Of a DNA stretch of 31,465 nt, positions 178 through 13,419 are shown in pieces; position 1 is the first letter of the stretch; each line of letters starts with the position of its first letter. A program made the position numbers and the translations under genes. The notes beneath the pieces were generated by a model. It saw nothing but the letters and a program-made list of their open reading frames with translations, searched no databases and was not told where the DNA came from. This DNA is from an uncultured Anaerolineaceae bacterium (GTDB taxonomy: Bacteria; Chloroflexota; Anaerolineae; Anaerolineales; UBA4823). The stretch covers positions 1 through 31,465 of the forward strand of contig CAZVRZ010000061.1 in the NCBI GenBank assembly GCA_964629965.1. The letters run 5' to 3'.

Positions 178-1566
178 ATGACTACCCAATTAATCCATCA
201 CGCGCAGTGTTTGGTAACCATGGATTGCCATCGCCGGGAGATTCCCGACGGTGGCGTTTTTATCCGCGATGGCTTTATCGAGCAGGTTGGTGCGAGCCCT
301 GAGCTGCCTGGAGTTGCGGACGAGATCTTGGATCTGTCCGGGCACGTGGTTTTGCCGGGCCTGGTCAATACACACCATCACTTTTATCAAACACTTACCC
401 GGGCAGTGCCTGCCGCTCAAAACGCCAATCTTTTTAACTGGCTGAAAACCTTATACCCTATTTGGGCCAGGTTAAGACCGGAAGACATCTTCGTTTCTAC
501 GCAGATCGCCCTGGCAGAAATGGCGCTTTCTGGCTGCACCACGGCTTCTGACCATTTGTATATTTATCCCAACGGTTCTCGGCTGGATGATGAGATCGAA
601 GCAGGGCGCGCCATGGGAATGCGCCTGCATGCCTCGCGTGGTTCGATGAGCCTGGGCGAGAGCCAGGGCGGGCTGCCGCCAGACGCGGTGGTTGAGAGCG
701 AAGCATTCATTCTCAAAGATTCCCAGCGCTTGATCGAAACGTACCACGATCCAAACCCGGGCGCAATGACCCAGATCGTGTTGGCGCCGTGTTCGCCTTT
801 TAGTGTCACTGCGCAGTTAATGCGCGCCAGTGCTTCTCTGGCGCGCGAGTATGGCGTACATCTCCATACTCACCTGGCAGAGACGCAAGATGAAGAAGTA
901 TTTTGCGAACAGAAATTCGGTTACCGTCCGGCGGCCTACATGGATGTGTTGAATTGGACCGGCTGCGATGTGTGGTTTGCCCACTCGGTTTATGCGAATA
1001 AGGAAGAGATTGCCTTATATGCCAGGACGGGCTGCGGTGTGGCGCATTGCCCTGCTTCAAACATGCGCCTGGCTTCGGGGATCGCTCCAATCCAGGATAT
1101 GTTATTGGCAGGTGTGAAAGTGGGTTTGGGCGTGGATGGTTCAGCCAGCAACGATGGTTCTAACCTGTTGGAAGAGACTCGCCTGGCTATGTTGGTCGCC
1201 CGCCTGCGCTCCGGTTTGTCGGGTGCGTCCTTGTCTGGTTCGGATGCATCTGCCCTGATGACAGCCCGCCAGGCCCTGGAGATTGCCACGCTCGGGGGAG
1301 CGGCAGTCCTGGGCCGCCAGGATATCGGTTCGTTGGAACCTGGCAAATGTGCGGATCTGTGTGCATTTCGCCTGGATCAGATCGAATATGCCGGCGCCCT
1401 GCATGATCCTGTGGCGGCATTGGTCTTTTGTGCGCCTGCGCGGGCAGCCTATACGATGGTGGGGGGAAGGTTTGTTGTGCGAGAAGGGCAGATCACCACC
1501 ATCGATCTTCCGGTTATGATCGAGCGTCACAACCGGGCTGCCAGGAGATTGGTCGCCGGAGAGTAA
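178..1566 (+). CDS. Metal-dependent amidohydrolase, COG0402 family (SsnA / 8-oxoguanine deaminase / AtzB-like chlorohydrolase-like)
   Basis: 462-aa ORF. N-terminal HxH metal-binding motif (LVNTHHHFYQTL), later HTHLAE and a GVDGSASND Asp motif typical of cytosine/guanine-deaminase-type amidohydrolases. Sits in a nucleobase-catabolism gene context. Confidence 0.75.
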   Translation: MTTQLIHHAQCLVTMDCHRREIPDGGVFIRDGFIEQVGASPELPGVADEILDLSGHVVLPGLVNTHHHFYQTLTRAVPAAQNANLFNWLKTLYPIWARLRPEDIFVSTQIALAEMALSGCTTASDHLYIYPNGSRLDDEIEAGRAMGMRLHASRGSMSLGESQGGLPPDAVVESEAFILKDSQRLIETYHDPNPGAMTQIVLAPCSPFSVTAQLMRASASLAREYGVHLHTHLAETQDEEVFCEQKFGYRPAAYMDVLNWTGCDVWFAHSVYANKEEIALYARTGCGVAHCPASNMRLASGIAPIQDMLLAGVKVGLGVDGSASNDGSNLLEETRLAMLVARLRSGLSGASLSGSDASALMTARQALEIATLGGAAVLGRQDIGSLEPGKCADLCAFRLDQIEYAGALHDPVAALVFCAPARAAYTMVGGRFVVREGQITTIDLPVMIERHNRAARRLVAGE

Positions 1567-1601
1567 GCGTAGAGGCTGGAGATATAAGGAAGGATTGGAT
1601 A

Positions 1602-3404
1602 GTGGAGTTCCATGCGGTAAATTCCCTGGTAAACGTAGCTATGGGACGCGAGCCGGCTGATTTGGTGATCCGCAACGGTAAATGGGCTTGCGTACAATCT
1701 GGCGAAGTTGTCGCCCAGACCGATATTGCTATCAAGGATGGACGCGTTGCCCTGGTTGCCTCTGATGCGAGGTATACAGTGGGAGATAAAACCCGGGTGA
1801 TCCAGGCCGATGGCCGTTATCTGGTTCCCGGCTTGTTGGATGCCCACATGCATGTTGAGTCGGGTATGCTTACCATCACTGAGTTTGTGAGGGCAGTGAT
1901 CCCCCATGGAACTACGGGCATGTTCATCGATCCGCATGAGATTGCCAATGTGTTCGGTCTACAGGGTGTGCGCCTGATGGTTGATGAGGCTCGCCACCAA
2001 CCGATCCACGTATGGGTGCAGGCTCCTTCGTGCGTGCCGTCTGCGCCCGGATTGGAAACTCCGGGGGCAGAGATCCGTCCCGAGGATGTGGCCGAGGCGT
2101 TGAGTTGGCCGGGGATCATTGGCCTGGGCGAAGTGATGAATTTTCCAGGTGTGGCTGCTAACGAAGCCTGGCTGCACCAGGAACTGGCTGCAACGCGCAA
2201 GGCCGGCAAGGTGATTGGCGGGCATTATGCTTCGCCGGACCTGGGTCGCCCTTTTGCCGGTTATGTGGCCGGCGGTGCCCAGGACGATCACGAAGGCACT
2301 CGCCTCGAAGATGCCGTTGCCCGCATTCGCCAGGGCATGAAGGTGATGATGCGCTTTGGCTCTGCCTGGCATGATGTGGCCGAGCAGGTGCGGGCCGTGA
2401 CAGAATTGGGCCTGGATCCCAGGCATTTCTTATTATGCACCGACGATTCGCATTCGTACACGTTGGTCAAAGAAGGTCATGTCAACCGTGCGCTGCGCGT
2501 GGCGATTGAGAGCGGTGTACCGCCGATGACTGCCCTGCAAATGGCTACTTTGAATACGGCTGAACATTTCCATGTCGACGGAGATATAGGCCAGATTGCC
2601 CCCGGGCGCTTTGCGGATATTCTGATCATGTCTGAATTGCCGGGAGTGGCGGCCAACCCGCCGGAGATGGTCATTGCAAAAGGAACCGTGATTGCCAAAT
2701 CTGGAAGGGTTTTGGTGGATCTGCAGACTTTTACTTATCCAGATTGGGTGCGGCAGTCTGTGCGGTTGGCTCGAGAAGTCAATACCGGCGATTTCCGCCT
2801 GGCAGTGAGCGGCGACCAGGCGCAGGTCTCTGCCAACGTGATCGGGATCATTGAAAACCAGGCTCCCAACCAGCGCCTGAGATATACTTTACCGGTGATG
2901 GAGGGGGAGGTGCAGGCAGATCTGCGCCAGGACATTGCTAAGATCGCTTTGCTTGACAGGCATCGGGGCGCCGGTGTGGTGCAGGTTGGCCTGGTGCACG
3001 GCTTCGGTTTCACGGTTCCATGCGCGGTTGGAACCACCGTGGCTCACGATTGCCACCAGATGGTAATCGTAGGGACGGATGACGGCTGCATGGCGATGGC
3101 TGCCAATGAGCTAAAACGCATTGGGGGCGGCCAGGTTGTGGTGAAAGAAGGCGAAGTGATTGGCAAGATCGAACTTCCCATCGCGGGGTTGATGTCTTCT
3201 GGCCGCGCCGAAGAAGTGGCCCGCCAGGCAGCTACCATCCTGGATGGATTCCGGCTGTGTGGCTGCTCATTGAATAACCCCAACATGCAGCTTAGTTTGA
3301 GTGCTTTACCGGTCATCCCTGACCTGCGCATCACAGACTTGGGTTTGGTGGATGTAAACCGGTTCTCATTGATCCCTGTAATAGAAAGTGAAAACATACC
3401 ATGA
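1602..3404 (+). CDS. Adenine deaminase family amidohydrolase (COG1001, Ade-like)
   Basis: ORF frame is open from 1428, but the likely start is GTG 1602, preceded by AGGAAGG (1586-1592). Translation has ADLVIRNGKW...DIAIKDGRV, then LLDAHMHVESGM (the HxH...E metal site of adenine deaminase) and a long C-terminal domain (~600 aa total), as in Ade. Substrate specificity is not provable from sequence. Confidence 0.7.
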   Translation: MEFHAVNSLVNVAMGREPADLVIRNGKWACVQSGEVVAQTDIAIKDGRVALVASDARYTVGDKTRVIQADGRYLVPGLLDAHMHVESGMLTITEFVRAVIPHGTTGMFIDPHEIANVFGLQGVRLMVDEARHQPIHVWVQAPSCVPSAPGLETPGAEIRPEDVAEALSWPGIIGLGEVMNFPGVAANEAWLHQELAATRKAGKVIGGHYASPDLGRPFAGYVAGGAQDDHEGTRLEDAVARIRQGMKVMMRFGSAWHDVAEQVRAVTELGLDPRHFLLCTDDSHSYTLVKEGHVNRALRVAIESGVPPMTALQMATLNTAEHFHVDGDIGQIAPGRFADILIMSELPGVAANPPEMVIAKGTVIAKSGRVLVDLQTFTYPDWVRQSVRLAREVNTGDFRLAVSGDQAQVSANVIGIIENQAPNQRLRYTLPVMEGEVQADLRQDIAKIALLDRHRGAGVVQVGLVHGFGFTVPCAVGTTVAHDCHQMVIVGTDDGCMAMAANELKRIGGGQVVVKEGEVIGKIELPIAGLMSSGRAEEVARQAATILDGFRLCGCSLNNPNMQLSLSALPVIPDLRITDLGLVDVNRFSLIPVIESENIP

Positions 3405-4138
3405 CAACGGCAAAAACACCCATCGCGTATAAGCTTTATGAAAATTTACGGCGTATGATCGCAGGACTGGAAACAGGCCAACGATTACCATCTGAGCCAG
3501 AACTGGCGCGCAAGTTAGGAGTTTCCCGGGCCACGCTGCGGGAGGCCATGCGCACATTTGAAACGCAAGGCGTGATCTACCGGCGCCAGGGCTCGGGGAC
3601 ATTTGTCTCGCGGCCGCCCCAGGTGATCCAGAGCGGCCTGGAGATGCTGGAAAGCATCGAGAGGTTGGCAGAACGGATTGGATTGCCGGTTTCCTTGGGA
3701 GAGAATATGGTCTCGCCGGACAATGCCAGCGAGGATGATGCTTTGGCTTTGGGCTGCCAGCCTGGCGATAAAGTGCTGCGGGTGTCGCGGGTCATCCTGG
3801 CGGAAGGGCATCCGGCGGCATACTTGATCGATGTTTTGCCCGGAGACGTTTTGGCTCCTGCCGAGTTGGAGAAGGGTTACAAAGGTTCGGTTTTAGATAT
3901 TATCCTGAAGCGCGGCTCGCCGGTATTGAGCTCCTCACGCTGCGAGATCAAAGCAACAACCGCCTCGCCGGACATTGCTCGGGCGATGGGAATCCAGCGC
4001 GGCGATGTGTTGCTGTGCTTTGTGGCATACCTGTACACCATTGAGGGGCGCGTGGTAGATTACTCTTACAGCTATTTCTTGCCGGGACATTTTCGTTTTC
4101 ATGTTGTCCGGCGAATTGAAACCGGCTATTCCGGTTGA
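3401..4138 (+). CDS. GntR family transcriptional regulator, HutC subfamily (wHTH + UTRA effector domain)
   Basis: N-terminal winged-HTH signature (RLPSEPELARKLGVSRATLREAMRTFETQGVIYRRQGSGTFV), ~245 aa with a C-terminal UTRA-like domain. Its ATG overlaps the stop of the upstream gene (ATGA coupling). Confidence 0.8.
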   Translation: MTTAKTPIAYKLYENLRRMIAGLETGQRLPSEPELARKLGVSRATLREAMRTFETQGVIYRRQGSGTFVSRPPQVIQSGLEMLESIERLAERIGLPVSLGENMVSPDNASEDDALALGCQPGDKVLRVSRVILAEGHPAAYLIDVLPGDVLAPAELEKGYKGSVLDIILKRGSPVLSSSRCEIKATTASPDIARAMGIQRGDVLLCFVAYLYTIEGRVVDYSYSYFLPGHFRFHVVRRIETGYSG

Positions 4139-4169: not shown

Positions 4170-4200
4170 CAGGGATTAATGATCCCTGTTCTCTAATTTC
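4170..4200 (+). terminator. Hairpin CAGGGAT-TAATG-ATCCCTG followed by a T-rich tract (TTCTCTAATTTC): possible intrinsic terminator or attenuator between the regulator gene and the carbamoyltransferase genes
   Basis: Perfect 7-bp stem with a 5-nt loop read from the sequence. The T-tract is imperfect and the stem short, so termination strength is uncertain. Confidence 0.35.
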
Positions 4201-4235: not shown

Positions 4236-5186
4236 ATGCGTAGTTTTATGGGACGTGATATTCTGTCGTTGAAAGAATTTGGTAGAGAAGATTACTATCG
4301 GGTGTTCGAAGTGGCAGACGACCTGGCGCCGATCGCCCGCAACCGCCGGAACAGCGACTTGTTGAAAGATAAGACCCTGGTTACCGCTTTTTATCAGCCC
4401 AGCACCCGCACCCGCCTGGCGCACGAGGCTGCCATGCATCGTTTGGGAGGGCATGTGCTGGGCTTTTCGGATGCCAAGATGACGCGCGCCGGCGATTTTT
4501 ACCAGGAATCGATCAAAGATACGGTGCGTATGTTGGAATTCTATGGCGATGTCTTGGTGATGCGCCATTTTCAGCAAGGAGCGCCCCATGAAGCGGCGCG
4601 TTGGTGCAGTATCCCGGTGATCAATGCCGGCGACGGTTGGGGAGAGCATCCCACCCAGGTACTGACGGATATGTACACAATCCTCAATGAGAAGGGCGGG
4701 CTGGATGGACTGAATTTCTTGTTGATTGGTGATATGCGCATGCGCACCATGCATAGTATCTCTTATGCCATGACCCAATTTGATATTAATGCGTTTTATG
4801 TGGCTCCTCCCGATATGCGCCTGACGGATGACTTCAAGCAGGAGCTCCGCTCGCTGAACCTGAATTTCAAGGAAATCGAGCATGTCGAAGAGGCCATTGC
4901 CGAGGCAGACGTCATCTATATGGAACCGGTGGTGCAGCCCGATTACACCAAATCCCGCGATGAGCGCACAGGGTCAGAAGGCCAGACTCCCGCGAATTAC
5001 AAGGTTACGAAAGAACTGCTGCGAAAAGCACGCCAGGATGCCATTGTGCTGCATTCACTGCCGCGCATGGACGAGCTGCCTGCGGAAGTAGATGACACCC
5101 GCCACCAGCGTTACTGGATCGAGGCGTTTAACGGCGTTGTGGTCCGCATGGCTTTATTGGCTCTGGTCTTAGGGGCGGTTGAGTGA
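4236..5186 (+). CDS. Carbamoyltransferase, aspartate-carbamoyltransferase-like (PyrB-like paralog; substrate uncertain)
   Basis: Start is ATG 4236 with GGAGGA 6 nt upstream. The ORF track's 4221 is an in-frame upstream TTG. STRTR carbamoyl-phosphate motif, HPTQ motif and a C-terminal HSLPR (ATCase-type HxLP) motif. N-terminus DILSLKEFGREDYYRVFEVADDL resembles PyrB. Confidence 0.8.
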   Translation: MRSFMGRDILSLKEFGREDYYRVFEVADDLAPIARNRRNSDLLKDKTLVTAFYQPSTRTRLAHEAAMHRLGGHVLGFSDAKMTRAGDFYQESIKDTVRMLEFYGDVLVMRHFQQGAPHEAARWCSIPVINAGDGWGEHPTQVLTDMYTILNEKGGLDGLNFLLIGDMRMRTMHSISYAMTQFDINAFYVAPPDMRLTDDFKQELRSLNLNFKEIEHVEEAIAEADVIYMEPVVQPDYTKSRDERTGSEGQTPANYKVTKELLRKARQDAIVLHSLPRMDELPAEVDDTRHQRYWIEAFNGVVVRMALLALVLGAVE

Positions 5187-5218
5187 GATGCTCACTATAG
5201 TTTTTCAAGGAGAAAACG

Positions 5219-6208
5219 ATGCAAACAGACCTTCGTAATCGAGATTTGATCGGCGACCTTGACTTTTCGAAAGAAGAAGTTGAAACGGTTTTGGAGGTGG
5301 CCTTTGACCTGAAGCGCAAGCGGGCCTTGGGCGAACCGCATGCTTATTTACGCGACAAGGTGCTGGCGATGTTGTTCTTCTTTAGCAGCACCCGCACGCG
5401 CGGCTCGTTCGAAGCGGGCATGGCGCAATTGGGCGGGCACGCGGCCTTTATCGAAAGCAAAACTACTCAGATTGCACATGGCGACACGCCGAAGGAAATC
5501 GGCGAGATCTTTGGACGGTATTACGATGGTATTGCCATCCGCCACTGCGATTGGGGCGTGGGCAATGGCTACCTGAACGCGGTTGCCAGGGCGGCACGGG
5601 TGCCGGTGCTCAATATGCAATGTGATATCTATCACCCTTTCCAATGCCTGGCTGACTTGATGACGATCATTGAGAAGAAGGGCCGCGATTTGCGGCGGAA
5701 AAAGATGGTTGTATCGTGGGCGTATGCGGCCTCGTACCAGAAGCCCATGTCGGTGCCGCAGAGCCTGATCCTGCAAATGCCGCGCTTTGGTCTGGATGTA
5801 GTGTTGGCGCACCCGCTCGAATTCCGCCTAATGCCTGACATTATGGACCAGGCCCGCGAGCAAGCGCGCAAGTACGGTACGGGCTTTGAAGTGATCTCGG
5901 ATCCGGATGGTATGGAAAAAGCTTTTAAGGATGCCGATATCGTTTATGCCAAGTCCTGGGGCGCGATGGTACATACGCCCGACTCGGATGAAGGCGCCAG
6001 GATCATCAAGAAATATGAAAGCTGGATCACAGATGAGCGCAAAATGGCCGCGGCGAAAACAGATGCTATTTACATGCACCCGCTGCCGGCGGATCGCAAC
6101 ATTGAAGTAACCGATGCAGTGATCGACGGGCCTCATTCTGTGGTCTATGATGAAGCTGAGAATCGTATGCACGCTCAAAAAGCTGTCATGGCTTTGACCA
6201 TGCGCTAA
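5219..6208 (+). CDS. Carbamoyltransferase, OTCase-like fold with atypical motifs (HPFQ, HPLP instead of HCLP); unknown specificity
   Basis: AAGGAG sits 8 nt upstream of ATG 5219. SSTRTRGSFE carbamoyl-phosphate motif, HPFQCLADL and C-terminal MHPLPADR. The N-terminal DLIGDLDFSKEEVETVLEVAFDLKRKRA resembles OTC/PTC-type enzymes, but the second-substrate motif is non-canonical. Confidence 0.8.
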   Translation: MQTDLRNRDLIGDLDFSKEEVETVLEVAFDLKRKRALGEPHAYLRDKVLAMLFFFSSTRTRGSFEAGMAQLGGHAAFIESKTTQIAHGDTPKEIGEIFGRYYDGIAIRHCDWGVGNGYLNAVARAARVPVLNMQCDIYHPFQCLADLMTIIEKKGRDLRRKKMVVSWAYAASYQKPMSVPQSLILQMPRFGLDVVLAHPLEFRLMPDIMDQAREQARKYGTGFEVISDPDGMEKAFKDADIVYAKSWGAMVHTPDSDEGARIIKKYESWITDERKMAAAKTDAIYMHPLPADRNIEVTDAVIDGPHSVVYDEAENRMHAQKAVMALTMR

Positions 6209-6219
6209 AGGAGTGAAAT

Positions 6220-7185
6220 ATGTCCGAACAGGCGCGTAAATTTGCGGTAGTGGCTATCGGTGGCAATTCTTTGATCAAGGATAAGCAGCACCAGACGGTG
6301 GAAGATCAATACACGGCTTCTAAAGAAACCACATTTTACATCGCGGATATGATCGAAGCCGGCTGGGATGTTGCTGTCACCCATGGGAATGGCCCACAGG
6401 TGGGTTTTATCCTGCGGCGATCAGAGATTGCTTACCGGGTAGAGGGGATGCACGAAATCCCCCTGGATGTTTGCGGTGCGGACAGCCAGGGAGCGATTGG
6501 TTATGCCTTGCAACAAACCCTGCAGAACGAGCTTTACCGGCGGGGCATCAAGAAAAATGTGGCGACGGTCATAACCCAGGTATTGGTAGATCGAGATGAT
6601 CCGGCATTTAAGAACCCCACCAAACCGATCGGCGGCTTTATGGACCAGGCCGAGGCGCAGCGCCGTGCCAAGGAAATGGATTGGGCGGTCGTTGAAGACG
6701 CCGGCCGCGGCTGGCGGCGTGTGGTGGCCTCTCCGCAGCCCAAAGAAGTCGTTGAGCTGGATACGGTGAAAGCTTTGCTGCAGAGCGGCGTGGTGGCAAT
6801 TGCCGCCGGCGGTGGGGGCATCCCGGTCATTGACGTCGGCGAGGGCGAGTATCGTGGCACGGCTGCGGTGATCGATAAAGACTTTGCCAGTTCCCTGCTG
6901 GCCCAGGCGATCAGAGCCGATCTTTTCCTCATCTCCACTGCGGTGGAGAAGGTGGCGATCCATTTTGGATCGCCACAGCAGCAGTGGTTGGATCGAATCA
7001 CACTGGCGCAAGCTAAGCAGTACCTGGCAGAGGGCATCCATTTTGCCAAGGGTTCCATGGCGCCGAAGATCGAAGCGATCATCTGGTTCTTGGAAGCAGG
7101 TGGAAAGCAAGCCTTGATCACCAATCCCCCCAACATCAGCAAAGCATTGCGCGGCGAGACGGGTACCTGGATCGTTAATGAGTAG
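6220..7185 (+). CDS. arcC: Carbamate kinase
   Basis: AAGGAG RBS. VVAIGGNSL N-terminal motif and THGNGPQVG motif characteristic of carbamate kinase (amino-acid kinase family). 321 aa. Confidence 0.85.
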   Translation: MSEQARKFAVVAIGGNSLIKDKQHQTVEDQYTASKETTFYIADMIEAGWDVAVTHGNGPQVGFILRRSEIAYRVEGMHEIPLDVCGADSQGAIGYALQQTLQNELYRRGIKKNVATVITQVLVDRDDPAFKNPTKPIGGFMDQAEAQRRAKEMDWAVVEDAGRGWRRVVASPQPKEVVELDTVKALLQSGVVAIAAGGGGIPVIDVGEGEYRGTAAVIDKDFASSLLAQAIRADLFLISTAVEKVAIHFGSPQQQWLDRITLAQAKQYLAEGIHFAKGSMAPKIEAIIWFLEAGGKQALITNPPNISKALRGETGTWIVNE

Positions 7186-7242
7186 AGGTAATTATTTTAT
7201 AAGTAGTATAGACAATCTCGTCCGAAGGGTGTATCCTTGTAC

Positions 7243-7373
7243 ATTGTGCATGGTAGATGCTGTGTGATTGGCCGAAAATTATTTAACTAAATAGATGCGT
7301 AAAATCGGCCAATCACTTGAGCAAACCGCTATGTTGGCTGTAAAGTTGTTCAAAAACATTTAGCGATTTGCTA
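7243..7373. repeat. Copy 1 of a ~125-bp structured repeat: two tandem hairpins (GTGATTGGCCGA-29nt-TCGGCCAATCAC; AGCAAACCGCTA-30nt-TAGCGATTTGCT)
   Basis: ~92% identical to 24016-24143. The perfect 12-bp inverted repeat was read directly. Located in the 340-bp intergenic region upstream of the BMP/ABC transporter operon. Confidence 0.8.
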
Positions 7374-7524
7374 ACATGTATGGAGCGCTATAGAGAGGCT
7401 CTGCCCCGGAGGCGTTTTCACGAAAGGAGGTGCCCTCAACCTGTTTGCCGTTTTGCATTGATGGAGAATGCTAGAAATGTCTGGTTTGAATCGACCAATT
7501 TAGATCATCTTGATGGAGGAGTAA

Positions 7525-8715
7525 ATGCGTACCAAAATATTGACAGTGCTGCTAATTCTGGCGATTGCCCTTTCGGGCTGCAGCCAAAAGCCCGAGGAAG
7601 TGGGCGGTTTTCAGATCCCGAATGTGGAAAAAGGCAAATTCAACGTTGGCATGGTTCTGATCGGCCCCCATGATGATGGCGGTTGGTCTCAGTCCCACTA
7701 TGAGGGACTCGAGTATGTTGCCAAGAATGTGCCGAACGTACATGTGGCGTATATCGAGAATGTGCCCGAAGGCGCTGACTCGGAGCAGGTTTTCCGCGCT
7801 CTCTCGCGGAAAGGTTTTGACCTGATCATTGGTACATCTTTCGGTTTTGGCGACCCGATGGAAATCGTGGCTGGTGAATTCCCGAAGAGCATGTATGTCC
7901 ACATTAGCGGCATCAAGTCCAATTCAACCAACTTCGGCAACCTGTTCGGCGCCATGGAAGTGATGAAGTATGCGGCTGGGATGCTGGCCGGGGCGCGCGC
8001 TAAGATGGATGGCAACCCCAAGCTGGGTTATATGGCGACCTTCCCCATTCCGGAGGAACTGCGCCTTGGGAATGCCATTGCCCTGGGTATGAAGAAGACC
8101 TGCCCGGAGTGCACCATGGATGTGCGCTGGATCAGTACCTGGCATGATCCCGTGATTGAAAAAGAAGCGGCTGCTTCCCTCTTCGATGCCGGTGCTCAGG
8201 TGGTTTTCACCGGCGCAGATACCCCGGCGGTTGCCGATGTGGCTCAGGAAAAGGGTAAATGGGGCGTGACCTATGACTGGTATGGTTCCTGCAAGGTGGA
8301 TCGCTGCTTGACCGTTCCTTATTGGAATTGGGGCCCGATCTATGCCAAGATCACCGAACAGGTGGCTGCGGGCACCTATAAGCCAGGTTGGGATTATTTC
8401 GATGCGGAAACAGGCGCACTGGGCCTCTACGGCTTTATGGAAGGCCAGTCGCTGCCCATGGGCGTCAAGGAATTACCCGCTGAGGTTGTGGATGAAGTGC
8501 GCTCTATCATTGACAAATCTCTCAAGGGCCAATTCACGCGCTTCGATGTGTTTACCGGCCCGATCATGGATAATCAGGGCAATACCATTGTGCCTGCTGG
8601 CTCGAAGATGGACCAGGCTGACCTGGATCAATTCCCGGAATATGGTTTGGGTTGTAAGTACTGCATGAAGTGGTGGGCAGAAGGCATTACTGCTGAACTG
8701 CCAAAGACCGATTAG
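7525..8715 (+). CDS. BMP family (PnrA/Med-like) ABC transporter substrate-binding lipoprotein, likely a purine-nucleoside-binding protein
   Basis: Lipoprotein signal MRTKILTVLLILAIALSGCSQ (lipobox LSGC). GGAGGAG RBS. ~396 aa periplasmic binding-protein fold with BMP-family hallmarks. Followed by a duplicated-ATPase ABC protein and two permeases, the classic nucleoside-uptake arrangement. Confidence 0.75.
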   Translation: MRTKILTVLLILAIALSGCSQKPEEVGGFQIPNVEKGKFNVGMVLIGPHDDGGWSQSHYEGLEYVAKNVPNVHVAYIENVPEGADSEQVFRALSRKGFDLIIGTSFGFGDPMEIVAGEFPKSMYVHISGIKSNSTNFGNLFGAMEVMKYAAGMLAGARAKMDGNPKLGYMATFPIPEELRLGNAIALGMKKTCPECTMDVRWISTWHDPVIEKEAAASLFDAGAQVVFTGADTPAVADVAQEKGKWGVTYDWYGSCKVDRCLTVPYWNWGPIYAKITEQVAAGTYKPGWDYFDAETGALGLYGFMEGQSLPMGVKELPAEVVDEVRSIIDKSLKGQFTRFDVFTGPIMDNQGNTIVPAGSKMDQADLDQFPEYGLGCKYCMKWWAEGITAELPKTD

Positions 8716-8732
8716 TCAATCCAGTTGAGTAC

Positions 8733-8779
8733 GGTCAGGGTCCGGTTGGCTGCGCAAGCACCCAATCCGGATCCTGACC
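8733..8779 (+). other. Imperfect 13-bp-stem hairpin (GGTCAGGGTCCGG ... CCGGATCCTGACC) between the binding-protein gene and the ABC ATPase gene: possible intra-operon attenuator or mRNA-stabilising stem
   Basis: Inverted repeat with one mismatch and a 21-nt loop, read from the sequence. A weak T-tract follows. Confidence 0.3.
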
Positions 8780-8798
8780 TTGTCTCCGAATATTAGCG

Positions 8799-10439
8799 AT
8801 GGAACAAATCATAGACGGATCAAATCCCCACGACGGTTTAAAATCCCGCGAATCAAGTGAGAGCCAGGAGCTGCCCACGCAAACGCTGGTGGTGGAGATG
8901 CGCGGCGTTATCAAGCGTTTTCCGGGCGTGCTGGCTAATGATCGCGTCGATTTTGAACTGCGCCGGGGTGAAATCCATGCCCTGCTGGGAGAAAACGGCG
9001 CCGGCAAAAGCACGTTGATGAATATCCTGGCGGGTCTCTATCAGGCAGAAGCCGGCAAGATCCTGGTTAAAGGAAAACTGGTCACGTTCCATTCGCCTCG
9101 CGATGCGATCGAGGCCGGGGTGGGGATGGTGCACCAGCATTTTATGCTGGTGCCATCACAATCGGTGACGGAAAATATCTTGCTAGGGTTGAAAGAACCG
9201 CGCTTCCGGCTGCGCCTGGCAGATTATGATCGCCAGATCAATGAGATGGGAGAACACTTTGGGCTGCGTGTAGATGCGCAGGCCAAGGTGTGGCAGCTTT
9301 CTGTTGGCGAGCAGCAGCGGGTGGAATTGTTAAAAATGCTTTACCGGGGGGCAGATATCTTGATCATGGATGAGCCCACCGCCGTGCTGGCTCCTCAGGA
9401 AATCGAGGGTTTGTTTGATACGCTGCGCTCCATGACAGCCGAAGGAAAGTCGGTGATCTTTATCAGCCACAAACTGCATGAAGTGATGGCGATTGCAGAC
9501 CGGGTGACCGTTCTGCGCAAAGGACGGGTGACCGCCGCAGGCGTCAAAACAGCCGATACCAGTCTGCAGGAATTGGCGCGCTTGATGGTTGGACGCGAGG
9601 TTTTGTTCCACATCGAAAGGAAACCTCAGCAGGCGGGAAACGTGGTGCTTTCGATCGACCATGTGCATGCTGAGAATGATAAAGGCCTGGAGGCGCTGAA
9701 GGGGATTTCCCTGGACGTTCACAGCGGCGAGATCGTGGGCCTGGCGGGCGTGGCGGGCAACGGGCAGCGAGAGCTGGCCCAGGTGATCACCGGGCTGCGC
9801 CGCTGCACTCAAGGCAAGATCATGATGAATGATAAAAATATCACCAACCGTTCGGTGGAATACAACATCCGCCAGGGGATTGGTTATGTGCCGGAAGATC
9901 GCACCCAGGTGGGGTCGTCTCCGAATTTGAGTATCACCGATAATGTTATTATGAAACGTTTTCGCCAGTCGCCCATTGCGCGCGGCTGGATGTTGGATAT
10001 GATGCAGGCTGCCCAGTTTGCCTCTGGTTTGCAGAAGGATTATGCCATTGTGGTTCCTTCAGTAGAAACGCCGGTGCGCTTGCTTTCTGGCGGCAACTTA
10101 CAGCGCGTGATCCTGGCGCGTGAGATTTCCGGTGAGCCGGCTGTGATGGTGGCTGTGCAGCCCACTCGAGGCCTGGACGTGGGGGCAATCGAGGGTGTGC
10201 AGCGCTTGCTGCTGCAGCAGCGCGAGGCAGGCGCAGCGATCCTGCTCATGTCTGAAGAATTGGAAGAATTAATCGCTTTGAGCGACCGCATCTGCGTGAT
10301 CTACGAAGGCCGGATCATGGGCGAAATCCGCCAGGGAGCTTTGGACGAAAAGACAGAAATCGAAACGATCGGTTTGATGATGTGCGGCACCCAGCTTGCT
10401 GATATTGACCCGAGTACGGGTGGCCCGAGTACGGGCTAG
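8799..10439 (+). CDS. ABC transporter ATP-binding protein with two fused ATPase domains (nucleoside/sugar type)
   Basis: Walker A GENGAGKST, signature LSVGEQQRVELLK, Walker B ILIMDEPT, a second P-loop GVAGNGQRELAQ and a second signature LSGGNLQRVILARE. The start is uncertain because there is no clear RBS. Confidence 0.8.
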   Translation: MEQIIDGSNPHDGLKSRESSESQELPTQTLVVEMRGVIKRFPGVLANDRVDFELRRGEIHALLGENGAGKSTLMNILAGLYQAEAGKILVKGKLVTFHSPRDAIEAGVGMVHQHFMLVPSQSVTENILLGLKEPRFRLRLADYDRQINEMGEHFGLRVDAQAKVWQLSVGEQQRVELLKMLYRGADILIMDEPTAVLAPQEIEGLFDTLRSMTAEGKSVIFISHKLHEVMAIADRVTVLRKGRVTAAGVKTADTSLQELARLMVGREVLFHIERKPQQAGNVVLSIDHVHAENDKGLEALKGISLDVHSGEIVGLAGVAGNGQRELAQVITGLRRCTQGKIMMNDKNITNRSVEYNIRQGIGYVPEDRTQVGSSPNLSITDNVIMKRFRQSPIARGWMLDMMQAAQFASGLQKDYAIVVPSVETPVRLLSGGNLQRVILAREISGEPAVMVAVQPTRGLDVGAIEGVQRLLLQQREAGAAILLMSEELEELIALSDRICVIYEGRIMGEIRQGALDEKTEIETIGLMMCGTQLADIDPSTGGPSTG

Positions 10440-10460
10440 ACTTACAGAGGGAAGACATGC

Positions 10461-11612
10461 ATGAGCAATCGTGAAGAAGGGCGTGTGCGGTTCAAGTCAC
10501 CGCGGTTCAAACCACCGCTGCGGATCTATTTTGAACCCCGCTTACAGGAACCGCCGAAATGGTATCCGTTGGTGGTGTCGTTAGGCGCAATTGTCTTCGC
10601 CTTATTATTGGGCGCGATTGTGATCGCCTTTGCTGGTGGCGATCCGTGGCGTTCCTATGCTCACATTGCCCAGGCTTCTTTCGGCAGCCTGGGGGTTTTT
10701 TCAGACACCCTGGTGAAGGCTACTCCCCTGATCCTGGTGGGCCTGGCCTGTTCGCTGGCTTTCCGGATGCGCTTGTGGAATATTGGCGCGGAGGGACAAT
10801 TTTTCTTGGGGGCGTTTGGAGCCAGTGCCGTGGTCTTGCTGCCCATTTTGCCGGCAGAGACCTCGCGGTGGATCTTCATCCCGGTGATGATGGTGGTGGG
10901 CACGCTGGCTGGGGCTTTGTGGGGCTTTGTGCCAGGCTTTTTGAAAGCGCGTTTTAATGTCAACGAAGTGATCACCACGTTGATGATGAACTATATTGCT
11001 GTGGCGTGGAACAACTACTTTATTTTCGCCGTGTGGAGCGAAGGCGGTTTTCAAATGAGCCATGTCTTTCCAAAAACGGCCTGGCTGCCGCGCCTGACAG
11101 ACTACGCCAGGCAGGTTCCCTGGCTGTCTGGTTTGACCACCCACCTGGGCTTGATCTTTGGCTTGATGGCGGCGATTGTGGTCTGGCTGATCTTATATCG
11201 TTCTCGCCTGGGGTATGAGATCCGCTTGATCGGCGATAATCCCAAGGCTGCCCGGTATGCGGGTTTGTCTATTACGCGCAATACCGTGCTGGTGATGATG
11301 ATTTCCGGTGGGCTGGCAGGATTGGCAGGCATGTCTGAGATCACGGGGGTGGTGCATCGCTTACAAGGTGCCATTTCGCCGGGATACGGGTTCACCGGTA
11401 TTATTGTGGCCTGGCTTGCTAAGCTCAATCCATTCGTCGTCATCGTTGTTTCGATCTTGTTCGGTGCTCTGATCCTGGCAGGGCGAGAGATCCAGCCATC
11501 CGGCATTCCCAAGATGATCCAAGGGATCATCCTGGTATCTTTGATTGCCAGTGATTTTTTCTTGCGCTATCGTGTGCGCATTGTTCGAGTTGAAGAGCGC
11601 GAGGAGGCCTGA
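10461..11612 (+). CDS. ABC transporter permease (BMP/nucleoside uptake system)
   Basis: 383 aa, multiple hydrophobic helices. Follows the ATPase. GAGGGAAG RBS. Confidence 0.75.
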   Translation: MSNREEGRVRFKSPRFKPPLRIYFEPRLQEPPKWYPLVVSLGAIVFALLLGAIVIAFAGGDPWRSYAHIAQASFGSLGVFSDTLVKATPLILVGLACSLAFRMRLWNIGAEGQFFLGAFGASAVVLLPILPAETSRWIFIPVMMVVGTLAGALWGFVPGFLKARFNVNEVITTLMMNYIAVAWNNYFIFAVWSEGGFQMSHVFPKTAWLPRLTDYARQVPWLSGLTTHLGLIFGLMAAIVVWLILYRSRLGYEIRLIGDNPKAARYAGLSITRNTVLVMMISGGLAGLAGMSEITGVVHRLQGAISPGYGFTGIIVAWLAKLNPFVVIVVSILFGALILAGREIQPSGIPKMIQGIILVSLIASDFFLRYRVRIVRVEEREEA

Positions 11613-11615
11613 TCC

Positions 11616-12584
11616 ATGGATCCGATCATCATACTTCAGGCAGGGGTTGGCACGGGTACGGTGCTCTTGTTTGCCACCCTGGGTGGAATATTCTCGGAAC
11701 GGTCGGGCGTGATGAACCTGGGGATGGAGGGGATGATGCTGATGGGCGCCATGACCGGTTACAGCGTTGCGCTGGCAACACATAATCCCTGGTTGGGTGT
11801 GATCGCGGCGATGCTGGCGGCAGGATTGATCAGCCAGGTGCATGCCTTCATCAGTATTACTCTTCAGGCCGATCAGGTGGTGAGTGGGCTGGCGCTGACT
11901 TTTCTCGGTGCGGGCATGAGCCTGGTGTTGGGCGAAGGCTTGAGCAAGGCGGGAACCGTTTCGCTGCTGCCCAACTTCTCAATCCCTCTATTGCAATCTA
12001 TCCCCTTGCTGGGCCCGATCTTTTTCAAAGATCAGAGTGTAATGGTCTACCTGGGCTACCTGCTGGTACCGTTATCCTGGTATTACATCAATCACACCCG
12101 GCCCGGCTTGCACTTGCGTGCGGTGGGGGAGCATCCTGCAGCAGCCGATTCGCAGGGCATTAACGTTTACCGGCTGCGTTACCTGTATGTATTCGTGGGC
12201 GGCGCCCTGGCCGGCGTGGCTGGCGCCACCATTAGCCTGGCGGTAGCTCCCGGCTGGTTCAGTGAGTTGACCACTGCCGGGCAAGGCTGGATTGCAGTGG
12301 GCCTGGTCATCTTTGCCCAGTGGGACCCTTTCCGGGCTGCTTTTGGCTCTTATACTTTCGGCGCGCTGCGCCGGCTGATCCTGGATATCCAGGGACCCAT
12401 GACGCTGCTGGGTTTTCGCAATCCTTTTTATTACAATCCTTATTGGGGTTTTTTCCTGCAGATGCTGCCCTATGCGTTCACGGTGATCGTTTTGGTGCTG
12501 GTCTCTCGAGAGGCCATGCGGAAGAGGCTGGGCGCCCCGGCAGCTCTGGGCGTCCCCTATATTCGCGGTGAGCGAGGTATGTAG
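11616..12584 (+). CDS. ABC transporter permease (second permease of the BMP system)
   Basis: GAGGAGG RBS. 322-aa polytopic membrane protein. Paired with the preceding permease. Confidence 0.75.
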   Translation: MDPIIILQAGVGTGTVLLFATLGGIFSERSGVMNLGMEGMMLMGAMTGYSVALATHNPWLGVIAAMLAAGLISQVHAFISITLQADQVVSGLALTFLGAGMSLVLGEGLSKAGTVSLLPNFSIPLLQSIPLLGPIFFKDQSVMVYLGYLLVPLSWYYINHTRPGLHLRAVGEHPAAADSQGINVYRLRYLYVFVGGALAGVAGATISLAVAPGWFSELTTAGQGWIAVGLVIFAQWDPFRAAFGSYTFGALRRLILDIQGPMTLLGFRNPFYYNPYWGFFLQMLPYAFTVIVLVLVSREAMRKRLGAPAALGVPYIRGERGM

Positions 12585-12588
12585 CTTT

Positions 12589-13419
12589 ATGGCGCGTTTC
12601 CGGTTGGTAACGCTCAATCTTTCTGTTGACCTGACCTATTGGAGCCAGCGCAAAGAGCTTTTGCGGGAGGGGTTGGCCGAATTAAAGGCGGACGTGATCG
12701 CCCTGCAAGAAGTAAAACTGCCGGAAAACCCCGCTCAATGGCTGGCGGATGCGTTGGCCGAAACCGGCCTGATTTACCAGGTGCACCTGTGTCCTAAGTC
12801 GGGCGAGAAATCGCGACAAGAGGCAATTGCTATTCTGAGCCGGCTGCCGGTTGAGCGGCATGCGATGCTTGACCTGCGGACGCAAAATCGCGTGGCGCAG
12901 TCTGTGCGGGTCGGTTTGGCTGAGGGAAAGTTTGTGACGATCGTTAACGGGCATTTTTATTGGCAGCCAGGCGAGTCTCCTGAGCGTTCCCAACAACTGC
13001 AGCGTTTGCTGGTTTGGTTGGGAACCCTGCCGATGAAAGCGCCATTGGTGGTGTGCGGCGATTTCAATGGATTGCCGGAAACCACCGCAATCCAGTTAAT
13101 GCGCCGTTATTTTAATTCTGCTTATGCCAAGGTGCACGGCCGCGAGCCTGAATATACCTACCCAACGCCTCTGCCGCGTTCCTGGAAGGCCAACGCGATG
13201 GCGTTTTACCAATACCTGCGCCTGTTTCAGCGGTTTCCCGGAACGCAGCAGTCTCAGTCGCACTCCTGGCAGGGCACGCTGGATTATATTTTTGTCAGCC
13301 AGATGCTTGGAGTGAAAGATTGCCAGGTGGTGTTGAACCGGCCTTCCAGTGAAAATGCGCTGATCTATCCAGCGGGTCACTTTGGCCTGATGGCTGATTT
13401 GGAATTGGCTGCTTTATGA
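12589..13419 (+). CDS. Endonuclease/exonuclease/phosphatase (EEP) family protein
   Basis: N-terminal motif VTLNLSVDL...ADVIALQEV (catalytic Glu of the EEP fold) and C-terminal ...DYIFVS...H motifs. The ORF is open from 12568, and the first ATG is 12589. Confidence 0.6.
   Translation: MARFRLVTLNLSVDLTYWSQRKELLREGLAELKADVIALQEVKLPENPAQWLADALAETGLIYQVHLCPKSGEKSRQEAIAILSRLPVERHAMLDLRTQNRVAQSVRVGLAEGKFVTIVNGHFYWQPGESPERSQQLQRLLVWLGTLPMKAPLVVCGDFNGLPETTAIQLMRRYFNSAYAKVHGREPEYTYPTPLPRSWKANAMAFYQYLRLFQRFPGTQQSQSHSWQGTLDYIFVSQMLGVKDCQVVLNRPSSENALIYPAGHFGLMADLELAAL

Follow-up and report, generated by a model that had tools for sequence, protein, structure and literature searches.

Gene content of the locus

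We analyzed a stretch of 31,465 nucleotides from an uncultured Anaerolineaceae bacterium of the phylum Chloroflexota (GenBank assembly GCA_964629965.1, contig CAZVRZ010000061.1, positions 1 to 31,465), here termed the window, with emphasis on three consecutive genes for two transcarbamylases (CT1 and CT2) and a carbamate kinase (CK). This triad very probably constitutes a catabolic, ATP-yielding module of purine degradation. All coordinates are window positions, the three core genes are on the + strand, and the annotation is based on the list of open reading frames (ORFs) and on Pfam and NCBIfam profiles. CT1 (4236-5186), annotated here as a pseudo-aspartate transcarbamylase (pseudo-ATCase), and CT2 (5219-6208), a compact transcarbamylase of the knotted group that resembles N-acetylornithine transcarbamylase (AOTC or AOTCase) and YgeW, both matched the Pfam families OTCace_N and OTCace with E values from 1e-27 to 1e-45, whereas CK (6220-7185) matched Pfam AA_kinase and NCBIfam TIGR00746. 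Shine-Dalgarno sequences precede all three genes at 6 to 9 nt from the starts (GGAGGA for CT1, AGGAG for CT2 and for CK), and the intergenic gaps measure 32 nt between CT1 and CT2 and 11 nt between CT2 and CK. The ORF tool had begun CT1 at TTG 4221, which is probably not the true start; we placed it at ATG 4236 because orthologues begin with MRSF.

A preliminary description of this DNA had reported three adjacent genes with ribosome-binding sites, encoding two transcarbamylases and a carbamate kinase, and the coordinates, Shine-Dalgarno sequences, Pfam matches, and TIGR00746 agree with that account. It had also stated that deiminases are missing, and the Pfam/NCBIfam annotation indeed contained no arginine deiminase or agmatine deiminase in the window. 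The neighborhood includes the GntR regulator, the importer, and the two amidohydrolases that had been named; the triad does not lie between the amidohydrolases, as had been thought, since both are located upstream.

CT1 belongs to the ATCase branch and lacks the aspartate site

The best solved relative of CT1 was the ATCase of Pyrococcus abyssi (249 bits), and the AlphaFold (AF2) model of CT1 (pLDDT 91) superposed on ATCases with a TM score of 0.88. Low confidence was restricted to the 80s and 240s loops, i.e., to the acceptor-binding elements in which CT1 differs. Of two hidden Markov models for ATCase, TIGR00670 was passed (256 bits; cut-off 237) and NF002032 was failed (236 bits; cut-off 263).

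CT1 was aligned with Escherichia coli PyrB and 97 full-length cluster representatives from an exhaustive HMMER search. The carbamoyl-phosphate site is retained (STRTR within QPSTRTR, the R105 equivalent, and HPTQ), as is R167. At the positions of R229 and Q231, the residues that bind the beta-carboxylate of aspartate in ATCase, CT1 has proline and valine (YMEPVVQPDY), and the motif RxQxER is absent. Its 80s loop, TRAGDFYQES, lacks S80 and K84, and HSLPR is present instead of HPLPR. RxQxER and K/xKGE (KKGE-type) loops occur in nearly all of the ~55 canonical ATCase representatives that were aligned; ~40 of the 97 representatives carry the R-AGD 80s loop of CT1 and no RxQxER. In neighbor-joining trees, CT1 and its relatives were separated from the canonical ATCases in 100/100 bootstraps. 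The clade of CT1 is tight, with no more than 45 to 50% identity to other pseudo-ATCase clusters, within a large pseudo-ATCase clade that has highly varied 240s loops. Judged by these motifs and trees, CT1 is a protein of predicted ATCase fold that is not an ATCase, and it appears to correspond, together with its ~40 R-AGD relatives, to the pseudo-ATCases of Barba et al. 2013 (PMC4016543). Features of pseudo-ATCases and of ureidoglycine carbamoyltransferase (UGTCase), namely, HSLPR, no RxQ, and a kinase gene two genes downstream, were all found in CT1.

The closest relatives of CT1 outside the triad are neighbors of SbnA and SbnB, the 2,3-diaminopropionate synthase pair. In Actinoplanes (locus L091), a CT1 homologue with 68% identity adjoins SbnA (366 bits; cut-off 350), SbnB (386 bits; cut-off 327), and a gene resembling that of PALP1, a pyridoxal phosphate (PLP) enzyme described below. 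The homologue of Streptomyces griseoflavus (L088, 49% identity) is in an operon with a nonribosomal peptide synthetase (NRPS), SbnA, and a phosphopantetheinyl transferase (PPTase), and SbnB is nearby. Both CT1-like genes are part of small natural-product clusters (NRPS, SbnA/SbnB, PPTase, and an SfmD-like peroxidase), an indication that antibiotic biosynthesis may employ an ATCase-type diaminopropionate carbamoyltransferase that has not been described and that differs from the diaminopropionate transcarbamylases (DPTCases) of the HDLP type.

CT2 resembles YgeW and is not an ornithine transcarbamylase

Noncanonical motifs had been noted in CT2 by the preliminary description, and they are present at residues 139 to 142 (HPFQ) and 287 to 290 (HPLP, where ornithine transcarbamylases [OTCases or OTC] have HCLP). 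Moreover, YAKSWGAMV is found in place of DxxxSMG, and N167, the asparagine of the NNV motif of OTCases, is missing. CT2 scored below every NCBIfam cut-off, with 246 bits for OTC (TIGR00658; cut-off 281), 242 for AOTC (NF003384; cut-off 288), and 202 for putrescine transcarbamylase (PTC or PTCase; cut-off 500). Among the E. coli transcarbamylases, YgeW was the best match (34% identity, 175 bits), and ArgI reached 131 bits. CT2 and YgeW have in common the motifs NxQCDIxHPxQ, WAY..SYxKPxSVPQ, YxKSW, and AHG(E/D)T, which are not in ArgI, and the KPMSVPQ sequence of CT2 is the Pro-rich loop of knotted transcarbamylases. CT2 is ~65 residues shorter than YgeW, as it lacks the N-terminal 15 residues, an 11-residue insert, the inserts of the 240s region, and the C-terminal tail.

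Six residues were proposed to form the acceptor site of YgeW, namely, Q160, S200, K203, K270, L331, and D124 (Shi et al., PMC4581275). The first five are kept in CT2 as Q134, S172, K175, K245, and L289, respectively, whereas none of the four YgeW-specific residues is kept in ArgI, where L, D, N, and D take their places. CT2 grouped with AOTC and YgeW in 83/100 bootstraps. AOTCase shares YAKSWGA and DERKMA with CT2, which indicates kinship only; its acceptor residue E144 (NMET) is glutamine in CT2 (NMQC), as in YgeW, and CT2 does not qualify as an AOTCase. By its motifs and tree position, CT2 is predicted to be a member of the knotted AOTC/YgeW clade and not an OTCase, and we propose that it is the functional equivalent of YgeW and acts on 2,3-diureidopropionate. 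The preliminary description had called for placing both enzymes among the known transcarbamylase clades; clustering with housekeeping relatives was not found, as CT1 fell outside canonical PyrB in all bootstraps and CT2 grouped with OTC in 0/100.

CT1 and CT2 are only ~26 to 28% identical to each other. The AlphaFold model of CT2 had a pLDDT of only 59, because the supplied homologues were limited to those of 85 to 90% identity; it was not used for a fold search or a knot check, and motifs were used instead.

The assignment of CK is straightforward, since it passed both TIGR00746 (374.4 bits; cut-off 358.25) and NF009007 (427 bits; cut-off 266). Its identity to E. coli proteins was 54% for YahI, 51% for YqeA, and 37.5% for AllK. 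As a predicted carbamate kinase, CK should convert carbamoyl phosphate and ADP into ATP and carbamate.

The triad is conserved and mobile

A scan of one genome per species for CT2 retrieved at least 523 matching stretches, and 80 loci with flanks of 10 kb were kept. Nearly all are labeled Chloroflexota/Anaerolineae, including the cultured Thermanaerothrix solaris 4228-RoL (L059), and a few have other phylum labels. Metagenome homologues of CT2 were likewise numerous and strongly conserved (83 to 90% identity), and the few with a named source were annotated as Anaerolineae/Anaerolineales. According to tblastn, CT1 is directly 5' of CT2 in 70 of the 77 testable loci, and CK is directly 3' of CT2 in 75 of 78. 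A neighborhood conserved nowhere else, which had been put forward as evidence against a functional unit, was therefore not what we observed. The usual gene order is FolD, 8-oxoguanine deaminase-like, Ade-like, GntR, CT1, CT2, CK, the four-gene Bmp ABC system, PALP1, a glycosyltransferase, and PALP2.

The triad also occurs without the rest of the locus, at 77 to 88% identity, in L001/L002/L035 and L086 (Candidatus Eisenbacteria label; contigs of 0.8 to 2.4 Mb). There, it adjoins genes for a 686-residue fusion of a YgfK N-terminal part with an iron-sulfur protein, XdhC, a MocA-like cytidylyltransferase, and a GlnA-like protein. The first 400 residues of the fusion protein match the catalytic part of YgfK (TIGR03315, 387 bits). 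This arrangement looks as if the three genes had recently moved together by horizontal transfer.

Small genes of selfish appearance, unrelated to the triad, interrupt the CT1-CT2 pair in more than 20 loci, which shows that the two tolerate separation. A recurrent type of insert in this spacer is a gene for a four-helix-bundle protein of 120 to 180 residues (similar to 23S rRNA intervening sequence proteins and bAvd), sometimes accompanied by a nucleotidyltransferase-like ORF; L018, L019, L024, L031, L032, L034, L037, L043, L058, L073, and L089 share this insertion hot spot. We had considered the small spacer ORFs as a PyrI-like regulatory chain and rejected this idea, as they are four-helix-bundle and nucleotidyltransferase-like insertions. 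A protein of ~680 residues, with 27 to 48% identity between loci, is encoded inside or just after the triad in 17 loci, either between CT1 and CT2 (e.g., L065:7849-9885, L013, L026, L029, L042, L046, L064, and L074) or after CK (L060, L062, L070, L071, L076, L079, and L083). It had no match in Pfam or NCBIfam and no relation to the YgfK-like protein, and we set it aside as unrelated to the triad because its frequent companions are a GT2 glycosyltransferase or XrtA-type deacetylase/FemAB envelope genes.

Links to the reductive urate pathway

The reductive (2,8-dioxopurine) urate pathway of gut bacteria was worked out in 2025: one ureido group of the intermediate is used for ATP formation, and the other is hydrolyzed. 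The reduction of 2,8-dioxopurine in E. coli is the task of YgfK (PMC12507026), YgeW phosphorolyzes one ureido group of 2,3-diureidopropionate and yields ATP together with YqeA (PMC12507026; bioRxiv 10.1101/2025.04.24.650524), and YgeY hydrolyzes the ureido group left by YgeW (PMC12990295). YgeW, which the preliminary description had still regarded as enigmatic, thus has an established function, shown by two 2025 studies of its ureido phosphorolysis, and the substrate of the present module can therefore be inferred.

At least one marker of this pathway (YgeY, SsnA, XdhD/XdhB-like, or YgfK-like) was detected in about 21 of the 80 loci. YgeY (TIGR03526, 446 bits; cut-off 321.5) was present in 12/80, XdhD/XdhA-like molybdenum (Mo) subunits in 10/80, XdhB in 5/80, SsnA (NF005540 above cut-off) in 3/80 (L075, L047, and L043), and a YgfK-like gene in L001 and L086. 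In the three loci with SsnA, CT2 holds the position of YgeW next to SsnA, YgeY, and CK. The gene order in L075 is an allantoinase/hydantoinase-like gene, SsnA, YgeY, a canonical pyrB on the opposite strand, CT2, CK, PALP1, and PALP2; apart from pyrB, this set maps onto E. coli hyuA, ssnA, ygeY, ygeW, yqeA, and ygeX, with CT2 in the place of YgeW. For comparison, L087 is a classical urate cluster with xanthine dehydrogenase (XDH), a YgfK-like protein, YgeW (44% identity), an M20 hydrolase, and SsnA-like and XdhD-like proteins.

The loci without CT1 are informative with respect to its role. There are four with a readable upstream region, and YgeY adjoins CT2 in three of them, exactly in the CT1 slot in L017 and L046 and just upstream in L075, with the reverse-strand pyrB in between. 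By comparison, YgeY occurs in only 8 of the 67 CT1-bearing loci (Fisher's exact test on [[3,1],[8,59]], p = 0.0105). CT1 and YgeY therefore appear to substitute for each other. Because YgeY fills in where CT1 is missing and because relatives of CT1 sit with SbnA/SbnB, the acceptor of the CT1 family would most simply be diaminopropionate or a compound closely derived from it; diaminopropionate is what remains of 2,3-diureidopropionate once its second ureido group is gone. The loss of R229 and K84 would fit a neutral ureidomethyl or aminomethyl group in place of the beta-carboxylate of carbamoyl-aspartate.

Two further loci deserve mention. The pyrB gene of L075 (L075:8660-9709, - strand), from a metagenome-assembled genome labeled Myxococcota, encodes a canonical ATCase (KGES loop, RVQKERF, and HPLPR) and lies head-to-head with CT2, between YgeY and CT2; its position in the usual CT1 slot may be a coincidence or a hint at the origin of CT1. 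In L092, genes for CN-hydrolases of the nitrilase superfamily (9036-9875, - strand, and 12951-13880, + strand) flank a divergent triad (~62% identity), and genes for an adenosine deaminase and an Xdh-type Mo subunit are close by. As the CN-hydrolase superfamily includes carbamoylases, L092 is possibly another pairing of hydrolytic and phosphorolytic ureido cleavage.

Linked PLP enzymes

Two PLP enzyme genes follow the transporter genes in the window. PALP1 (13416-14678, + strand; Pfam PALP) is threonine synthase-like with an N-terminal Cys-rich motif and scored 249 bits with NF006050 (cut-off 303); PALP2 (16988-18451, + strand; Pfam PALP) is a CysK/CBS-like protein of 487 residues with a weak CysK match. 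Both keep their place beside the triad in loci that lack the transporter (L089, L075, L030, and L044). A homologue of PALP1 (40% identity) lies beside SbnA/SbnB and the CT1-like gene in Actinoplanes, and PALP1 is a candidate for processing 2,3-diaminopropionate. Homologues of PALP2 (46 to 69% identity) accompany the triad in L092, L089, and L075. The L087 urate cluster contains a PLP enzyme of 500 residues that is 48% identical to PALP2 and no YgeX, the diaminopropionate ammonia-lyase, for which PALP2 is a candidate substitute.

Proposed pathway

According to the scheme we propose, the Bmp ABC system would import purines, which adenine deaminase- and 8-oxoguanine deaminase-type enzymes would deaminate prior to conversion to urate. 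Ring reduction and opening by the sometimes-linked XdhD/XdhB-like Mo enzymes, a YgfK-like or other reductase, SsnA, and a hydantoinase would lead to 2,3-diureidopropionate. CT2 would phosphorolyze one ureido group of this compound, and CT1, standing in for the hydrolase YgeY of E. coli and Clostridium, would phosphorolyze the second (2-)ureido group, giving 2,3-diaminopropionate and carbamoyl phosphate. CK would turn both carbamoyl phosphates into ATP, i.e., two instead of one per diureidopropionate. Removal of 2,3-diaminopropionate by PALP1/PALP2, in place of YgeX, would pull the unfavorable phosphorolyses forward, and the genes would be controlled by the GntR/UTRA repressor. The reverse order of the two cleavages is equally compatible with the data: the first cleavage may be that of the 2-ureido group by CT1, in analogy to the action of UGTCase on allantoate, and albizziin, which is a short citrulline homologue, may then be the substrate of CT2.

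The more general proposal of the preliminary description, a catabolic ATP-yielding module linked to nucleobase fermentation with two carbamoylated intermediates, gains support from the clades of both enzymes, their lost acceptor motifs, the conserved neighborhood, and the transfer of the triad as a unit. That CT1 and CT2 phosphorolyze both ureido groups of diureidopropionate we regard as probable. We see the arguments as evenly balanced for the most specific version, in which CT1 would be an undescribed phosphorolytic (2-)ureido-aminopropionate/diureidopropionate carbamoyltransferase from the ATCase branch that replaces YgeY and, together with a minimal YgeW-type enzyme, raises the ATP yield of the ureido steps from one to two.

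Several observations weigh against this interpretation. The substrates of CT1 and CT2 are deduced only from gene context and motifs, and 59 of the 80 loci have no upper-pathway marker (XdhD, YgfK, SsnA, or hydantoinase) within 10 kb. With the YgeW models, CT2 reached 180 and 186 bits, far below the cut-offs of 500 (TIGR03316) and 453 (NF005538); the sixth proposed acceptor residue of YgeW, D124, is Cys110 in CT2; and CT2 is equally close to AOTCase and YgeW, with bootstraps that leave its place within the knotted group unsettled. A specific assignment of CK to the YqeA type had to be rejected, as it is equally close to YahI. Eight loci carry YgeY, CT1, and CT2, i.e., three ureido-cleaving enzymes for two groups, which points to redundancy or a different job for one enzyme and suggests that hydrolysis and phosphorolysis can coexist. 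In L090, a CT1-like gene without CT2 or CK nearby lies beside a formate-tetrahydrofolate ligase gene. Furthermore, the known diaminopropionate transcarbamylases, from antibiotic pathways, belong to the OTCase branch with the HDLP motif and not to the branch of CT1 (PMC4581275), and the regiochemistry of YgeW is disputed, as the two 2025 papers disagree (PMC12990295).

Alternative explanations

The strongest alternative, which we nevertheless consider unlikely, is that the two transcarbamylases do not act in series: CT2 would carry out the YgeW step, and CT1 would feed the shared kinase from another ureido compound, with ureidomethyl-hydantoin, 4-ureido-5-imidazolecarboxylate (xanthinase route), carbamoyl-beta-alanine (from pyrimidines), and an imported carbamoyl amino acid as candidates. 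This would account for the eight loci that combine YgeY with both transcarbamylases, according to which YgeY and CT1 are not strictly alternatives, for the CT1-like gene without CT2 in L090, for FolD upstream in ~30 loci, and for the highly varied 240s loops of pseudo-ATCases. It accounts less well for YgeY next to CT2 in three of the four CT1-less loci, in two of them exactly in the CT1 slot, for the ties of CT1 homologues (68% and 49% identity) to diaminopropionate synthesis, and for the gap of only 32 nt between CT1 and CT2, which are adjacent in 70 of the 77 testable loci. In addition, genes of the xanthinase route or of the reductive pyrimidine route were not seen in the loci.

An allantoin-type route, in which CT1 would convert allantoate and inorganic phosphate into ureidoglycine and carbamoyl phosphate, CT2 would act on ureidoglycine or oxalurate, and CK would form ATP, is in our view quite improbable. 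The H(S/T)LP motif of CT1 is that assigned to UGTCase (PMC4581275), and a carbamate kinase follows, as in Rubrobacter (PMC4016543); on the other hand, the 80s loop of CT1 lacks the S/K pair listed for UGTCase (PMC4581275). The cyclic amidohydrolase of L075 passes the AllB allantoinase cut-off (381 bits vs. 358), and allantoate and 2,3-diureidopropionate are just one CH2 apart. However, an allantoinase-like gene was seen only in L075, and neither the window nor the annotated locus families contained a uricase, hydroxyisourate (HIU) hydrolase, OHCU decarboxylase, allantoicase, or ureidoglycolate enzyme. The markers that accompany the triad (SsnA, YgeY, YgfK-like, and XdhD-like) belong to the reductive route, and the nearest CT1 relatives are found with diaminopropionate synthesis genes. 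Moreover, cultured Anaerolineae are anaerobes, whereas uricase requires O2.

CT1 and CT2, possibly with CK, might also join in a mixed trimer or complex, either with one common substrate or to channel carbamoyl phosphate. The near-constant adjacency of CT1 and CT2 and the unusual conservation of CT2 provide circumstantial support. Nevertheless, we judge such an assembly very unlikely, given that CT2 and CK occur without CT1 in L017, L046, L075, and L047, that CT1-like genes exist without CT2, that inserted genes separate CT1 from CT2 in more than 20 loci, that the two proteins have low mutual identity, and that all known family members are homotrimers (PMC4581275).

Finally, an anabolic role, with CT1 as PyrB, CT2 as ArgF, and CK as carbamoyl-phosphate synthetase for both, as proposed for Pyrococcus, can practically be dismissed: CT1 does pass TIGR00670 (256 bits vs. 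237), public annotations read aspartate/ornithine carbamoyltransferase, the best PDB sequence matches are Pyrococcus ATCase (CT1) and OTCase (CT2), and CT2 is conserved at 83 to 90%, but the acceptor-binding motifs of both enzymes are gone, neither falls in a canonical clade, no pyr, arg, or pyrI genes are nearby in a context of purine deaminases, a HutC-type repressor, an importer, and urate pathway genes, and L075 has a fully canonical pyrB beside CT2.

Comparison with known systems

Serial phosphorolysis by CT2 and CT1 would most closely resemble the YgeW-YqeA step of E. coli and Clostridium sporogenes (Liu et al. 2025; Li et al. 2025; PMC12507026). Both systems combine a knotted transcarbamylase with a carbamate kinase and share YgeW acceptor residues, and their gene neighbors include purine deaminases, Mo hydroxylases, SsnA, YgeY, and a PLP enzyme for diaminopropionate. 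They differ in that CT1 is found where E. coli has YgeY, that two other PLP enzymes replace YgeX, that the regulator is of the GntR/UTRA type and not the sigma-54 regulator YgeV, and that the upper-pathway genes are mostly nonadjacent. CT2 itself differs from YgeW by its 34% identity, its reduced length, and its failure to reach the family cut-offs.

With respect to CT1, the closest precedent is the pseudo-ATCase Rxyl_2847 of Rubrobacter xylanophilus, a UGTCase with phosphorolytic activity on allantoate, a diureido acid, whose gene precedes that of a carbamate kinase (PMC4016543). Pseudo-ATCases and CT1 have in common the ATCase branch, an intact carbamoyl-phosphate site, the lack of RxQ, an altered HPLP, an adjoining carbamate kinase, and a connection to purine catabolism. 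In contrast, CT1 forms its own clade, has the loop TRAGD..YQES instead of the UGTCase S/K pair (PMC4581275), and occurs in a context of diaminopropionate derivatives, not of allantoate. In Nocardioides JS614, the only genome of group 2 cited there, a pseudo-ATCase gene beside a ygeW homologue and xdhABC was noted in 2013 without a function (PMC4016543). DPTCases of viomycin and zwittermicin biosynthesis (PMC4581275) carbamoylate diaminopropionate, and the CT1-like Streptomyces and Actinoplanes genes are also found with diaminopropionate synthesis and NRPS genes; DPTCases are, however, biosynthetic members of the OTCase branch with HDLP, whereas CT1 belongs to the ATCase branch, has HSLP, and is coupled to a kinase for catabolism. 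The arginine and agmatine deiminase pathways likewise rely on phosphorolysis of a ureido compound followed by substrate-level phosphorylation by carbamate kinase, but here a deiminase is missing, the two transcarbamylases lack OTCase/PTCase motifs, and the setting is that of purines.

In the literature that we searched, we found no account of a conserved mobile three-gene unit joining a pseudo-ATCase to a minimal enzyme of the YgeW type, nor of such a unit apparently substituting for YgeY, spreading in Anaerolineae, or doubling the ATP yield, as is implied here. A literature search on "pseudo-ATCase" returned only the 2013 paper, and the supplement of PMC12507026 contained nothing on Chloroflexota clusters. 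If the proposed pathway is correct, a class of environmental anaerobes conserves the energy of both ureido groups and is more energy efficient than the urate route of gut bacteria. The at least 523 matching stretches correspond to at least about 500 species-level genomes with a CT2 relative. Purine fermentation would, in the same case, be a significant, overlooked energy source for the Anaerolineae that abound in sediments, soils, and digesters. Genes that routinely go under the names pyrB and argF would receive functions, and pathway surveys based on BLAST cut-offs (e.g., YgeW at ≥63% identity) would miss these organisms. The division of labor between an ATCase-type and an AOTC/YgeW-type enzyme would represent a natural experiment that would settle the order and regiochemistry of ureido cleavage, and the enzymes would be of use for engineering more energy-efficient uricolytic probiotics.

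Flanking genes and noncoding features

Upstream of the triad, the gene at 178-1566 (+ strand) encodes an amidohydrolase of the 8-oxoguanine deaminase type (NF006055, 690.6 bits; cut-off 532). With SsnA models it reached only ~130 bits, and its pairwise identities were 29% with E. coli GuaD and 25% with SsnA. A homologue is found inside the locus in 50 of 83 loci, typically just upstream. The enzyme would feed 8-oxoguanine into urate; a role in ring opening is a possible alternative. It is followed by a gene of the adenine deaminase family (~1563-3404, + strand; Pfam Adenine_deam_C and Amidohydro_1; TIGR01178, 488.8 bits, cut-off 472.5), which is kept in 54 loci and whose probable GTG start, taken from the ORF translation, overlaps the preceding stop codon. 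The next gene (3401-4138, + strand; Pfam GntR and UTRA), the ATG of which also overlaps the preceding stop, encodes a GntR/UTRA regulator of the HutC type; it lies immediately 5' of CT1 in 63 loci, and its product is likely a repressor of the catabolic genes. FolD, a methylene-tetrahydrofolate dehydrogenase/cyclohydrolase, is encoded immediately 5' of the 8-oxoguanine deaminase-like gene in ~30 loci (e.g., L078:3941-4825). Given FolD and the formate-tetrahydrofolate ligase neighbor in L090, a link of the triad loci to folate/C1 metabolism is possible.

Downstream, a Bmp/PnrA-type ABC importer spans positions 7525-12584 on the + strand (Pfam Bmp, two ABC_tran, and two BPD_transp_2 domains), with the binding protein at 7525-8715, a double ATPase at 8799-10439, and permeases at 10461-11612 and 11616-12584. 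It follows CK in most loci, is missing in compact versions (L089, L075, L030, and L044), and probably takes up purine nucleosides or bases. Between the last permease and PALP1, overlapping both, lies a gene of the endonuclease/exonuclease/phosphatase family (12568-13419) without a counterpart in the 80 related loci, which might encode a nucleotide/nucleoside phosphatase or represent an insertion.

Promoter and terminator scans of the window gave counts near those of shuffled sequence and were uninformative, and an Rfam scan of the window detected no riboswitch or other known RNA, including at 7264-7316. The 97-nt gap between the regulator gene and CT1 contains a perfect 7-bp inverted repeat (CAGGGAT-N5-ATCCCTG, 4170-4188), which could serve the HutC-type regulator as an operator or form a small hairpin. 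A perfect 12-bp inverted repeat, GTGATTGGCCGA-N29-TCGGCCAATCAC (7264-7316), is located in the AT-rich 339-nt gap between CK and the transporter genes (7186-7524), where it overlaps a second, imperfect 23-nt inverted repeat (7309-7383). These repeats may form a regulatory element, either an operator pair or an RNA element.

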